A stretch of DNA of 64,000 bases from an uncultured Anaerolineaceae bacterium (GTDB taxonomy: Bacteria; Chloroflexota; Anaerolineae; Anaerolineales; UBA11579): positions 126,081 to 190,080 of the forward strand of contig CAZUTS010000002.1 of the NCBI GenBank assembly GCA_964623375.1, given 5' to 3'. Of the stretch, positions 8,547 to 11,806 are shown in pieces. The translations under genes and the position numbers were made by a program. A model generated the notes under the pieces. That model made no database searches, was not told the origin of the DNA, and saw nothing but the letters and a program-made list of their open reading frames with translations. Each line of letters opens with the position of its first letter. Positions within the stretch are counted from its first letter, which is position 1.

Positions 8547-8577
8547 CGCAATCTGGAATGCAAGTTGTATAATGCAA

Positions 8578-8602
8578 CTGTTAGCTGTTAGCTGTTAGCT
8601 AG
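8578..8602. repeat. Short tandem heptamer (gctgtta)x3
   Basis: ctgttagctgttagctgttagctag. Similar low-complexity 'agct/gatt' strings occur in other intergenic regions (22920-23010, 35200-35290, 35500-35530, 36730-36940). Confidence 0.6.
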
Positions 8603-8610
8603 TTTAGACA

Positions 8611-8636
8611 ACTGAATACTCTTCGGTGGCAGGTGC
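8611..8636 (+). repeat. Partial duplicate of the 5' end (P1/P2 5' strands) of the downstream FMN riboswitch
   Basis: actgaatactcttcggtggcaggtg (8611-) versus actaaatactcttcggggcagggtg (8698-). Followed by hairpins 8640-8657 and 8653-8679, not by the rest of an aptamer. Confidence 0.6.
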
Positions 8637-8702
8637 GCAGCTTCGCTGTGCGGGCGTTTCGAAAAATCACGAAACGCCATGCTGCCGGGTTTATACAACT
8701 AA

Positions 8703-8892
8703 ATACTCTTCGGGGCAGGGTGATTACGCATCGATAGCCAAAGCGGTGGAGTTTGCGTAGCAAACTCCATTAGCAGCGGCGCCAGCCGCTGCGTAAAATT
8801 CCCGATCGGTGGTACAGCCCACGAGCGCTCCATGAGCGCAGGATCCGGTGAAACTCCGGGGCCGACGGTATAGTCCGGATGAAAGAAGACGC
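8703..8892 (+). promoter_or_regulatory. FMN riboswitch (RFN element) with a 73-nt insertion in L2
   Basis: Matches the RFN consensus blocks: ctcttcggggcagggtga[..]aattcccgatcggtggtacagcccacgagcg ... ggatccggtgaaactccggggccgacggtatagtccggatgaaagaag. Confidence 0.88.
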
Positions 8893-8970
8893 GGAGTTCG
8901 AAGACTCCGCAAGGCAAGTGGCCTGCTTTTACGCAAGCTGCTGGCCTGCGCATTGTGCGTAGCTCTTTCT

Positions 8971-9006
8971 ATGCCCCAAAAGCATTTGCTTTTGGGGCAT
9001 TTTGTT
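8971..9006 (+). terminator. Intrinsic terminator 1 of the riboswitch expression platform
   Basis: atgccccaaaagca-tt-tgcttttggggcat (14-bp perfect stem) followed by tttgtt. Confidence 0.75.
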
Positions 9007-9046
9007 GGAGCGCGTGCCACGTGCTGTTTGTGCTATGCACAATCCA

Positions 9047-9082
9047 CAGCCCCGATGGATTCTATCGGGGCTGTTTTGTTTT
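9047..9082 (+). terminator. Intrinsic terminator 2 (tandem)
   Basis: cagccccgat-ggattct-atcggggctg followed by ttttgtttt, 20 nt before ATG 9103. Confidence 0.7.
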
Positions 9083-9102
9083 GCGAGAGGTTGCAAGTAC
9101 GT

Positions 9103-9909
9103 ATGAAACGTAGTCGAGATCACAAGGGGATGCATGCTGGGTTACTGGCTCTGCTGACGGCTGCTGTGGCCTTGCTGGCCTGGGAGCTGGTGGTGCGTGT
9201 TTCCCAGCTGCCCGCCTTCATTTTGCCCGGCCCGGGTATCGTGTGGGCGCGGCTGCTGACTGCACTGGCCGATGGCAGCCTACTGCGCCACTTGTGGGTC
9301 ACTCTGCAAGAGGTGCTGCTCGGTCTGGCTCTCGGCACGCTAGTGGCCAGCCTGCTGGGATACTGGTTGGCGCGCTCGCCGCGCTGGGAACGTTTGCTGG
9401 CCCCATTCGTGGTGGCCAGCCAATCGGTGCCTATCGTGGCGCTGGCGCCGCTGCTGGTGATCTGGTTCGGGCCCGGTTTGCTCTCCAAGACGCTCATCTG
9501 CGCACTCATCGTTTTCTTCCCTATCCTTATCAACACCATCATTGGCCTCAAGAGCGTGCCGCAGGACTTGCGTGACCTGATGCGCTCCTTGCAGGCCAGC
9601 CGTGCGCAGACCCTGTGCCTGCTCGAGCTGCCCGCCGCGCTGCCCGTGCTGCTGGGCGGGCTGCGTATCGGCGCTACGCTCTCGGTCATTGGCGCGGTGG
9701 TGGGCGAGCTGGTGGGCGCTGACCGCGGCCTGGGCTTCCTCATCAACGTCGGCCGCGGCCAGTACGACACGGCGCTCGTCTTTGTGGCCGTGTTCGCTTT
9801 AGTTGCTATGGCTTTGCTGCTGTACGGCTTGGTTGTGCTGGCGGAGCGCCGCTGGTTATGGTGGCAACAAAAATCCAATTCACTCTCATTATTTTCTGGA
9901 GAACAATGA
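9103..9909 (+). CDS. ABC transporter permease, NitT/TauT (BPD_transp_1) family; candidate riboflavin importer permease (RibX-like)
   Basis: In-frame ATG at 9103, downstream of the terminators; the track ORF start at 8848 would run through the riboswitch. Multi-TM. Downstream of the FMN riboswitch. Confidence 0.75.
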   Translation: MKRSRDHKGMHAGLLALLTAAVALLAWELVVRVSQLPAFILPGPGIVWARLLTALADGSLLRHLWVTLQEVLLGLALGTLVASLLGYWLARSPRWERLLAPFVVASQSVPIVALAPLLVIWFGPGLLSKTLICALIVFFPILINTIIGLKSVPQDLRDLMRSLQASRAQTLCLLELPAALPVLLGGLRIGATLSVIGAVVGELVGADRGLGFLINVGRGQYDTALVFVAVFALVAMALLLYGLVVLAERRWLWWQQKSNSLSLFSGEQ

Positions 9910-11045
9910 AAAACTCTGATTCACTCACTGTCTTTGCGAGCCGCTTTACGGCGAAGCAATCCCCAATTGGGATTGCAAGACAGGCTTGGGGATTATGCAA
10001 TCTAAGATTGCTTCGTCCGTTTGCCGCAAGCGGCAATACTCCTCGCAATGACAAAGCTCCTAGACGCGCTACCCGTGTGACTTTAACCCTGATCGCGGCT
10101 AGCTTGCTGTTGGCCGCCTGTGGCGCAACGGCTGCACCAGCGGGGCCGGTGGAAACTATCCGCCTGCCGATGGGATACATTCCCAACGTACAGTACGCAC
10201 CGTTCTATGTTGCCGTTGAGCGCGGGTACTTTGCCGAGGCAGGCTACGCCATTGAGTTTGACTACAGCTTCGAAACAGATGGCGTGGCTTTAGTGGGCGC
10301 GGGCCAGCTACCCTTTGCGGTCGTCTCCGGCGAGCAGGTACTGCTCGGCCGTGCGGCAGGTTTGCCCATCGTCTATGTGGGCGCGTGGTACCAGGAGTTT
10401 CCGGTGGCTGTGGTGGCGATGGCGGACAGTGGCATCAGCGCCCCACAGGATCTCAAAGGCGCGCGCATTGGCCTGCCCGGCCTGTTCGGCGCTACCTACA
10501 TCGGCCTGCGTGCGCTGTTGAGCCAGCGCAGCATTCTCGAAGCCGATGTGCAGCTCGATTCGATTGGCTTCAATCAAGTGCAGGCGCTGGCCGCCGGGCA
10601 AGAAGATGCCGTGGTGGGCTACGTCAACAATGAGCCTATCCAGCTAGAGGCCCAAGGCTACGACGTCACCGTGCTGCACGTGGCCGATTATGTGGACCTG
10701 GCTGCCAATGGCATCCTCACCAACGAGAGCATGCTGGCTGAGCAGCCTGAGCGCGTGCGCGGCTTTGTGCGTGCCTTCCTGCGCGGCCTGGCCGACACCA
10801 TTGCTGACCCTGAGGCCGCGTACCAGATCTCCACAAAATACGTAGAAGGGCTGGCCGCGCTGGACAAAGACACCCAGATGGCCGTGCTGACCCTATCCAT
10901 TGAATCGTGGCAGGCCGAGCCGCTGGGTTACTCCAGCCCGCAAGCCTGGGAGAACATGCACGCCGTGTTGCTGGAGATGGGCATGCTGACCCAGCCGCTG
11001 GATGTGAGCGCCGCCTTCACCAACGAGTACCTGCCGGCTGACTAA
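9906..11045 (+). CDS. ABC substrate-binding lipoprotein, NMT1/THI5/ThiY-like; candidate riboflavin-binding RibY-like
   Basis: ATGA overlap with the permease stop and GGAG RBS. Lipobox 'LLLAAC'. 'GYIPNVQYAPFYVAVERGYF' is typical of NMT1/ThiY-type SBPs. Confidence 0.7.
   Translation: MKNSDSLTVFASRFTAKQSPIGIARQAWGLCNLRLLRPFAASGNTPRNDKAPRRATRVTLTLIAASLLLAACGATAAPAGPVETIRLPMGYIPNVQYAPFYVAVERGYFAEAGYAIEFDYSFETDGVALVGAGQLPFAVVSGEQVLLGRAAGLPIVYVGAWYQEFPVAVVAMADSGISAPQDLKGARIGLPGLFGATYIGLRALLSQRSILEADVQLDSIGFNQVQALAAGQEDAVVGYVNNEPIQLEAQGYDVTVLHVADYVDLAANGILTNESMLAEQPERVRGFVRAFLRGLADTIADPEAAYQISTKYVEGLAALDKDTQMAVLTLSIESWQAEPLGYSSPQAWENMHAVLLEMGMLTQPLDVSAAFTNEYLPAD
9928..10056. repeat. Composite family-A repeat (unit, spacer, inverted unit) lying in frame inside the 5' end of the SBP gene
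   Basis: ctgtctttgcgagccgctttacggcgaagcaatcccc ... gattgcttcgtccgtttgccgcaagcggcaatactcctcgcaatgacaaag. Same architecture as 35295-35388. Confidence 0.8.
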
Positions 11046-11806
11046 TGCCTGCTGCCAAGACCGCTCCCTTGCTTTCGGTAGAGAAGCTCTCGGCCAGCTT
11101 TGCTGACCGCACGGGCCAGCTCTCCGTGCTGCGCAACGTGACTTTCAGCGTGCCGCGCGGCCAGTTCCTGTGCGTGCTCGGCCCGTCTGGCTCGGGCAAG
11201 AGCACGCTGCTGCGCCTCTTGGCGGGCTTGTTGCCCGCCAACCGCGGCCGCATTCACTTCGCTGGCCAGCCTGTGGACGGCGCACAGGCTGGGGTGGGGC
11301 TAGTGTTCCAGGACGCCAACCTGATGCCCTGGCGCACCGCGCTCGATAACGTGGCCCTACCGCTGGAGCTGCGCAATGACCCTGATGCGATCGACCGTGC
11401 CTGGGACATGCTGCAGCTCGTCGGCTTGCAGGGTTTTGAGCAGGCGCTGCCCAGCCAACTTTCCGGCGGTATGGCGCAACGCGTGGCGATTGGCCGCGCC
11501 TTGGTGCAAGACCCGCAGCTGCTGCTGCTGGACGAGCCGTTTGGCTCGTTGGATGCGCTCACGCGCGAGAAGATGGGCGAGGAGCTGCTGCGCATCTGGG
11601 AGCTGGAGCACAAGACGGTGGTGATGGTCACGCATGACATCAACGAGGCGCTCTACCTTGCGGACCGCGTGCTGGTGCTCGGCAAGCGCCCGGCCAGCAT
11701 CAAGCTGGATATGCCTGTCAGCCTGGCGCGCCCGCGCCGCCCCGAGCTGCGCTATTCGCCCGCCTTTGGGCGCATGGCGGCGCAATTACGCGCAGCCATC
11801 GAATAG
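11045..11806 (+). CDS. ABC transporter ATP-binding protein (NitT/TauT family)
   Basis: 253 aa. 'GPSGSGKSTLL', 'LSGGMAQRVAIGRAL', 'LLLLDEPFGSLD'. TAATG overlap with the SBP stop. Confidence 0.9.
   Translation: MPAAKTAPLLSVEKLSASFADRTGQLSVLRNVTFSVPRGQFLCVLGPSGSGKSTLLRLLAGLLPANRGRIHFAGQPVDGAQAGVGLVFQDANLMPWRTALDNVALPLELRNDPDAIDRAWDMLQLVGLQGFEQALPSQLSGGMAQRVAIGRALVQDPQLLLLDEPFGSLDALTREKMGEELLRIWELEHKTVVMVTHDINEALYLADRVLVLGKRPASIKLDMPVSLARPRRPELRYSPAFGRMAAQLRAAIE

Follow-up and report, generated by a model that had tools for sequence, protein, structure and literature searches.

The closest described relatives of the element analysed here are the FMN riboswitches (RFN elements, Rfam RF00050), known from the F. 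nucleatum impX structure 3F2Q and from B. subtilis ribD. Loop L2 of these RNAs is a T-loop, UGAAA, in which the L6 adenine A90 intercalates between positions 4 and 5 (PMC3764141; the intercalation is also described in PMC3201879), and T-loops are defined with an unstacked nucleotide at position 3 (PMC6158498). Helix P3 bears a further optional helix, P3a, with its loop L3a, which emerges from a loop of the form U-R-A/A-A-N-N and is part of both the Rfam consensus and the crystallised RNA (PMC3201879). Barrick and Breaker (2007; PMC2258182) described the helix-interrupted T-loop, in which two G-C pairs close the loop, a U and an A form a lone pair (U...A), a helix splits a GNR triloop at one position and two 3' nucleotides are bulged, and a helix of the L2 type in FMN riboswitches was already noted there in general terms. 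The P6-P7 bulge of AdoCbl riboswitches (PMC2258182) has a U-A closing pair, a GNR triloop interrupted by a helix at one position and two bulged 3' nucleotides, and the helix emerging from it leads to a functional peripheral extension. With regard to gene context, RibXY with an upstream FMN riboswitch is a riboflavin importer, as supported by complementation in Chloroflexus (PMC4418817).

The riboswitch studied here lies in a window of 64 kb, the whole stretch of DNA that was analysed, and resembles RF00050 members in its six-helix junction nucleotides, its L5 T-loop, its P1 switching helix, its terminator-type expression platform, the riboflavin-related operon downstream and a score above the gathering threshold. 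It departs from the standard form in that its L2 T-loop is broken by a 73-nt multi-hairpin domain and its P1 comprises only 5 bp; moreover, Rfam mis-registers its 5' end, and some relatives with large inserts score below threshold. The L2 helix resembles P3a/L3a in being an optional helix that leaves a loop of the same kind, at the equal loop position, in the pseudo-symmetric partner domain; in contrast to P3a, it is represented in Rfam alignments as a local end and not as a consensus feature. At the sequence level it also shares the three features of the AdoCbl P6-P7 bulge given above, although cobalamin riboswitches belong to another class. Like the RibXY loci of Chloroflexus aurantiacus and other Chloroflexi (PMC4418817), the locus places an FMN riboswitch before an NMT1-type binding protein and a permease, presumably for riboflavin import; unlike the C. 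aurantiacus locus, it belongs to the Anaerolineales, its genes run from permease through binding protein to ATPase, and two terminators stand in tandem behind its aptamer. As an analogy only, rRNA expansion segments are likewise lineage-specific helices at fixed, solvent-exposed sites, with gain and loss of hairpins around a constant core; they concern a different molecule and scale, and no homology is implied.

We estimate a probability of about 85% that positions 8707-8889 constitute a functional FMN OFF switch of a ribXYZ-type riboflavin importer in which the 73-nt insert is a tolerated peripheral expansion. A tolerated expansion domain was one of the options raised in an earlier note on this DNA, and the distribution among orthologs, the covarying closing helix and the intact core and terminators argue for it.

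Anatomy of the aptamer and of its L2 domain

RF00050 was the sole family to reach its gathering score across the whole 64-kb window (75.8 bits against 66.2). The aptamer occupies 8707-8889 of the forward strand, from the 5' strand to the 3' strand of P1, as delimited by the RF00050 match, whose 5' end is mis-registered, together with manual registration against orthologs. All conserved RFN blocks that the earlier note had listed can be read directly from the sequence: CUCUUCGGGGCAGGGUGA at 8706-8723 is followed by the insert at 8724-8796 (73 nt), by AAUUCCCGAUCGGUGGUA at 8797-8814 and then by the other blocks up to the 3' strand of P1. The true 5' end is marked by the 15-nt CUUCGGGGCAGGGUG (8708-8722), which is identical or nearly identical in every ortholog examined. 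The 5' strand of P1, UCUUC (8707-8711), pairs with GAAGA (8885-8889), and P1 covaries in orthologs.

Loop L2 is split as GGGUGA (8718-8723), 73 nt and AAUUCCC (8797-8803), with a one-nucleotide ambiguity in the insert boundary caused by a run of A. Upstream of the insert, the 5' strand of P2, GGG (8718-8720), and T-loop positions 1-3, U-G-A (8721-8723), are near-invariant in orthologs, position 3 being either A or C; downstream of it, 8797-8803 begin with A-A at T-loop positions 4-5, continue with two bulged U and end in the 3' strand of P2, CCC (8801-8803), and in the orthologs the A of position 5 is invariant while position 4 is mostly A. The assignment of L2 as a T-loop is taken from PMC3764141 and PMC2258182. 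The remainder of the core, at 8807-8877, comprises the junction pairs, P3 (8809-8812/8819-8822), P4 (8825-8830/8834-8839), P5 with the L5 T-loop (8844-8848/8856-8860) and P6 (8866-8868/8875-8877), all on the forward strand and supported by the Rfam alignment at high posterior probability and by the consensus fold of the orthologs. The junction sequences GGGGCAGGGUG, CCCGAUCGGUGGUA, CCCACGAG and GAUCCGGUGAAACUCCGGGGCCGACGGUAUAGUCCGGAUG are all present, giving the six-way P1-P6 arrangement. At the sequence level, the L5 T-loop UGAAACU is intact, and L2 keeps U-G-A and A-A-U-U on the two sides of the insert.

According to the earlier note, the interruption of P2-L2 could be undone by removing 8724-8796, and this was confirmed. 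The comparison with and without the insert relied on natural insert-free orthologs, scored with the Rfam model, and on pairwise alignment of the insert-deleted sequence. The 117-nt aptamer that remains after deletion is 81-84% identical, end to end, to the insert-free orthologs L025 and L052, which themselves score 107-110 bits against the Rfam FMN model.

The insert, for which we use the name P2a domain (our literature search found no paper using 'P2a' for FMN riboswitches), is strongly folded (-35.9 kcal/mol, z = -5.4), and its delimitation is supported by folding, by covariation among orthologs and by compensatory changes relative to L021 and L085. It is closed by a covarying helix of five pairs (8724-8728 with 8792-8796) that can be extended to 7 bp. 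This helix is followed by a weak segment (8729-8745) and by two hairpins, both predicted by folding: hairpin 1 at 8746-8770, with the core GGAGUUUGC-GUA-GCAAACUCC (arms 8748-8756/8760-8768), and hairpin 2 at 8773-8792, GCAGCGGC-GCCA-GCCGCUGC (arms 8773-8780/8785-8792). Both hairpins had been proposed from the sequence and are real. The self-closing stem proposed with them holds in part: the closing helix covaries, but the full 7-bp stem (8724-8730/8790-8796) shares three nucleotides (8790-8792) with hairpin 2, and therefore they cannot both form at full length. The folds with a shorter closing stem or with a shorter hairpin 2 are only 0.5 kcal/mol apart.

At the sequence level, the arrangement GGG-U-G-A-helix-A-A-UU-CCC, with constant position and flanks and a covarying helix, follows the pattern of a helix-interrupted T-loop. 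We propose that the insert is a peripheral domain of helices that leaves the T-loop (U1-G2-A3-A4-A5 plus two bulged U) between its positions 3 and 4, a counterpart of P3a in L3; FMN T-loops with a tolerated helix at this site are known. In several orthologs (e.g. L069, L072, L039, L056) the P3 loop reads U-A-A-helix-A-A-G-C, which is P3a; because the P3 loop has this same helix pattern, the L2 helix can be regarded as a mirrored P3a within the pseudo-symmetric P2-P6 domain. The elements on which the L2-L6 clamp depends, namely U1, G2, A5 and the 4/5 gap into which the L6 adenine fits, are all retained beside the insert, and this suggests that the clamp, and with it the three-dimensional form of the T-loop, is preserved.

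Expression platform, promoter and transporter genes

The aptamer lies in the leader, 214 nt upstream of ribX-ribY-ribZ-like genes, and is followed by an expression platform. All of the features described in this section are on the forward strand. A TATAAT -10 box read from the sequence at 8568-8573 likely marks the promoter; it was not scored by the promoter consensus scan because there is no match to a -35 hexamer, and an equivalent (G)TTATAAT stands upstream of the riboswitch at most orthologous loci. Immediately after the aptamer, folding predicts a hairpin, GCGGAGU-UCGAAG-ACUCCGC (8890-8911), that is kept in relatives with a variable 5' arm. The terminator scan identified two strong intrinsic terminators, at 8971-9000 and at 9046-9074; the elements as a whole span 8971-9008 and 9046-9083. 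The 5' arm of terminator 1 (8971-9008), GCCCCAAAAG, is complementary to CUUCGGGGC at 8708-8716, the start of the aptamer, and the 5' arm of terminator 2 (9046-9083), GCCCCGA, is complementary to the UCGGGGC of CUUCGGGGC. The platform as a whole is highly structured (z = -9.2). Terminators of the form CCCC(G/A)A...GGGG recur in the orthologs, and their complementarity to the start of the aptamer is conserved. A crude pattern search found two such tandem terminators in at least 11 of the 81 orthologous leaders.

These elements are consistent with regulation by transcription termination following the standard FMN logic. With FMN bound, P1 would hold CUUC, and the adjacent GGGGC would be kept in the aptamer; with both held, the two downstream terminators would therefore form and expression would be off. 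Without FMN, CUUCGGGGC would be free to pair with the GCCCC(A/G)A arms of the terminators. This antiterminator pairing is inferred from complementarity and its conservation, and the ligand response is a predicted one.

The downstream reading frames are intact and encode a ribX-like ABC permease (BPD_transp_1; 9103-9909), 99% identical to a protein of an 'Anaerolineales bacterium' MAG, a ribY-like NMT1/THI5 substrate-binding protein (9906-11045), whose start is placed by the overlap seen in relatives, and a ribZ-like ABC ATPase (11045-11806).

Distribution of L2 helices and their annotation by Rfam

To place the insert in context, we collected 80 orthologous loci from species-representative genomes and, in addition to these, close relatives found by exact-protein look-up; the counts below refer to 81 riboswitch copies upstream of the ribX of the same ribXYZ-type transporter in Anaerolineae. 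An L2 insert is present in 73 of the 81 copies, always at the same position. Eight copies have the canonical L2, GGGUG-AAA-UUCCC, 59 carry an insert of 13-34 nt and 14 an insert of 56-111 nt. The inserts follow a common rule, U-G-(A/C)-helix-N-A-U-U: U1 is invariant, G2 nearly so and A5 invariant, with the helix between A3 and A4.

Covariation in the closing helix was evaluated on a pseudo-alignment (A3) in which, for every distinct insert, the initial 6 nt and the final 7 nt are connected by a dummy GAAA loop, and the figures depend on this construction. Double-sided changes occur at all five pairs, and the covariation score of 0.464 compares with 0.139 in shuffles, none of which reached it (0/500), and with at most 0.168 for slid partners. 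RNAalifold, applied to 29 natural aptamers, predicts the closing helix independently, together with P1-P6, with 4-11 compensatory changes per closing-helix pair.

The same architecture is widespread in metagenomes. The pattern AGGGYG-N(10-40)-TTCCCNAYCGGYGGTA matched at least 120 stretches, from which at least 115 FMN riboswitches with a genuine L2 insert of 7-36 nt were obtained; the GC content of the loci lies between 0.28 and 0.75, and human-gut contigs are among the samples. Sorted by the first downstream gene, the matches listed comprise 52 loci with ribX/ribY, 24 with the ECF gene ribU, 12 with ribD, seven with CarboxypepD_reg plus an outer-membrane barrel, two each with ribBA and ribH, one with ribE and three whose downstream gene had no match to the reference set, in addition to 17 stretches too short for a call. 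For nine examples upstream of genes other than ribX, Rfam confirmed the FMN assignment with scores of 83-102 bits and located the additional nucleotides in L2. Among the matches listed, 97 further distinct inserts form closing pairs 1-5 in 96, 95, 94, 79 and 76% of cases, and they have A (83) or C (13) as the 5' flank and AA (85) as the 3' flank.

Two side observations concern individual loci. L154, L107 and five other metagenome loci (GC 0.57-0.65) carry L2-helix FMN riboswitches upstream of CarboxypepD_reg and beta-barrel genes resembling TonB-dependent receptors, which could encode outer-membrane flavin receptors. In L035 (2499-2860), two identical riboswitch 5' parts are separated by an N run within one MAG contig, probably a scaffolding artefact.

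The earlier note had regarded L2 as universally uninterrupted and an insertion there as unexpected. That premise proved wrong, with 73 of 81 orthologs and at least 115 metagenomic FMN riboswitches interrupted, and the insert is therefore not unexpected; L2 inserts are common at the same site and, as described above, were noted in general terms in 2007 (PMC2258182). The note had named a high frequency of such inserts as one outcome that would change its view, and this is essentially what we found. The other such outcome, that the nucleotides belong to P3, did not materialise: when it aligns shorter orthologous inserts, at 83-101 bits, the Rfam model accommodates the additional nucleotides as a local end within the hairpin loop of P2, in agreement with the note's own placement. 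Optional helices in the L2 T-loop are thus widespread, previously noted and little advertised, and the window element carries a large one.

Large inserts affect how these riboswitches are scored. In the window, the RF00050 match is reported at 8774-8894, with hairpin 2 taken as a false P1 containing several non-pairs; along the 3' 110 nt of the match the posterior probability of the alignment is high. Once inserts reach 56 nt, the 5' end is generally mis-registered and the score is 69-76 bits: the 5' end is truncated or mis-registered in the window and in L085, L018, L034, L003 and L021, and three of the eight scanned loci with inserts of this size (L033, L006 and L001) fall below the gathering threshold. 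These three missed loci have L2 inserts of 61-104 nt, and L006 and L001 have P4 insertions as well. Our own covariance model R1, for which 29 orthologs were used and P2a was included among the consensus helices, still mis-registered the window when run with filters off (8750-8892, 84.9 bits), which we attribute to the way local-end or banded alignment deals with long inserts and not to biology. Since neither the Rfam model nor R1 aligns the full aptamer across the insert, the registration rests on manual and ortholog comparison.

The false model alignment suggested that the insert might duplicate the P1-P2 5' segment in degenerate form, an idea that was rejected, as only 6 of 9 insert positions match, which is not significant. 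Second matches to 'GGGCAGGGT' in some loci were likewise dismissed as chance matches within coding sequence. A permissive Rfam scan of 8550-9110 returned nothing credible besides FMN, and no RNA family nested in the insert.

History of the insert and its possible roles

The 3' 54-60 nt of the window insert recur with 97-98% identity in the nearest relatives of the locus (L085, L086, L081, L084 and L208); in flanking genes, L085 and L086 are about 94-95% identical to the window at the nucleotide level. The L2 insert of these relatives measures 110-111 nt and has five hairpins, including two additional ones, GCAUCGGC... and CAGAGUUGC-UUCG-GCAACUCUG. The window has GCAUCG-AUA-GCC where the relatives have about 40 nt more, and the window insert is therefore interpreted as a deletion derivative of the 110-111-nt version. 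In the more distant L021, the closing stem shows a compensatory U-A to C-G change, and GCAGC/GCUGC of hairpin 2 has become GCUGC/GCAGC.

The earlier note had also considered a small mobile insertion with terminal inverted repeats that inactivated the switch, such as a MITE- or REP-like element landed in L2. The inverted repeats UUACGCA/UGCGUAA and the internal hairpins do have this appearance, but the 'inverted repeat' is the closing helix, which covaries, and no target-site duplication is evident at the insert. No further copy of the 73-mer or of its hairpins was detected in the 64-kb window (up to 3 mismatches; short-word BLAST), and we therefore do not regard the insert as a mobile element; in 1.28 Mb of fetched related loci, the search for the 73-mer and its hairpins outside L2 and P4 loops was negative as well. 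The orthologous locus was found in relatives, carrying inserts of unrelated sequence and of graded length, from 0 to 111 nt, and unrelated inserts occupy the identical site in hundreds of FMN riboswitches of different phyla; the position is orthologous across lineages. In view of this evidence, a mobile origin appears extremely improbable. Evolution by local duplication and deletion of hairpins fits better and is favoured because two AGUU(U)GC...GCAA(A)CU hairpins of the relatives look like paralogs. The L2 domain would accordingly be a plastic expansion rather than foreign DNA, present in most relatives at 13-111 nt and growing or shrinking by whole hairpins.

The leader of the window strain has features of its own. 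A period-7 tandem repeat, CTGTTAG x3.3, lies at 8578-8600 on the forward strand, and period-7 repeats are found between the TATAAT box and the riboswitch throughout the window's subclade, with differences in unit and copy number; this array is a variable-number repeat in the 5' leader. Examples are TGAGCAG x9.4 in L081 (1001-1066) and TCAGCTA x4.6 in L084 (1024-1055); a period-7 repeat is also present in L208 (1-50), and the tail of L212 has one copy more than the CTGTTAG x3.3 of the window. Downstream of the repeat, comparison with relatives revealed an 87-nt strain-specific segment (8602-8688, forward strand) that contains a degenerate copy of the riboswitch 5' end and two hairpins. Its positions 8602-8635 match 8689-8722 over 34 nt at 82% identity, copying the leader, P1 and the 5' strand of P2 with a degenerate GGUGGCAGGUG. 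The segment is missing in L085, L086, L081, L084 and L208, and the first 25 nt equal the relatives' leader at 100%, which places the effective insertion of the extra DNA between CUCUUCGG and GGCAGGG.

These differences raise the question of whether the window copy is damaged, that is, whether regulation has been impaired or re-wired through the loss of about 40 nt from the insert and through the 87-nt pseudo-copy. The relatives have the 110-111-nt insert and no upstream duplicate, and the upstream segment repeats the P1 5' strand ACUCUUCGG. In principle, this segment could interfere with folding. In addition, the weakly structured stretch 8729-8745 resembles the stump of a deleted hairpin and the closing stem competes with hairpin 2, for which reason the window copy could be somewhat destabilised. 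However, all conserved aptamer positions, both terminators and the antiterminator complement are intact, as are the ribXYZ reading frames; the GGGGCAGGGUG consensus is no longer present in the upstream copy, which forms a closed three-way junction by itself; and the same 87-nt arrangement recurs, 100% identical, in a second assembly (Logan contig L211, run ERR2586217). We consider a damaged switch very unlikely.

A further question is whether the large L2 domain has a function of its own. In the large-insert subclade, the proximal 6 bp of the hairpin at 8746-8770, GGAGUU/AACUCC, are unchanged in the window and in L085, L081, L084, L208, L021, L003, L210, L034 and L048, whereas its distal stem and loop and the neighbouring hairpins vary or covary. 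This invariance exceeds what a purely neutral spacer predicts, and among relatives whose proteins are 82-99% identical, conservation in the 3' half of the insert equals that in the aptamer core. L210 (about 1080-1130), L006 and L001 have multi-hairpin insertions in the P4 loop too. The P4 hairpin GCAGUUUGCGUAGCAAACUGC of L210 is near-identical to the window L2 hairpin GGAGUUUGCGUAGCAAACUCC, with a compensatory G-C to C-G swap, and similar GGAGUU...AACUCC-type modules occur in P4 of L006 and L001, which suggests that hairpin modules were duplicated between peripheral loops of one riboswitch. Furthermore, the AAACUCC of the insert equals the L5/P5 3' sequence at 8851-8857.

Taken at face value, these observations could indicate a functional module that braces the tertiary structure, assists co-transcriptional folding, binds a protein or RNA, or tunes the switch as a decoy for L5/P5 pairing. 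Against this, eight orthologs lack an insert altogether, a further 59 have no more than a 13-34-nt hairpin whose sequence is arbitrary, whole hairpins are gained or lost between genomes that are 94-95% identical, and the conservation could come from the shared ancestry of a small subclade combined with hairpin duplication. The decoy pairing of the insert's GGAGUUU with the AAACUCC of L5/P5 was rejected: L048 has AAAUUCC in L5 and still AAACUCC in the insert, and the pairing therefore does not co-vary. The second sensor or protein-binding module suggested in the earlier note found no direct support; no Rfam family matches the insert, and the sole hint is the one sequence-conserved hairpin. A functional module is, in our assessment, unlikely, and it is similarly unlikely that the 56-111-nt L2 domains of this Anaerolineales subclade form a distinct add-on built on the GGAGUU...AACUCC hairpin. 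If they did, the add-on could brace the tertiary fold, time folding or dock a protein or another RNA segment and so tune the FMN response, and the riboswitches would represent a structurally elaborated subclass instead of a neutral expansion. The reading that we prefer is that of a tolerated, and probably neutral, peripheral expansion of a working switch.

The analysis reveals no new regulatory principle, and its main value is corrective and practical. FMN riboswitch L2 commonly bears an optional helix at a fixed T-loop position, following the rule U-G-A/C-helix-N-A-UU, which matters for anyone relying on L2 conservation in design, drug targeting or annotation. FMN riboswitches with large L2 inserts are under-annotated or mis-delimited in Chloroflexota MAGs, a systematic blind spot. 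Finally, the natural series of inserts at one site, of 0, 13-34 and 56-111 nt, could show how much load a T-loop-mediated tertiary clamp tolerates.
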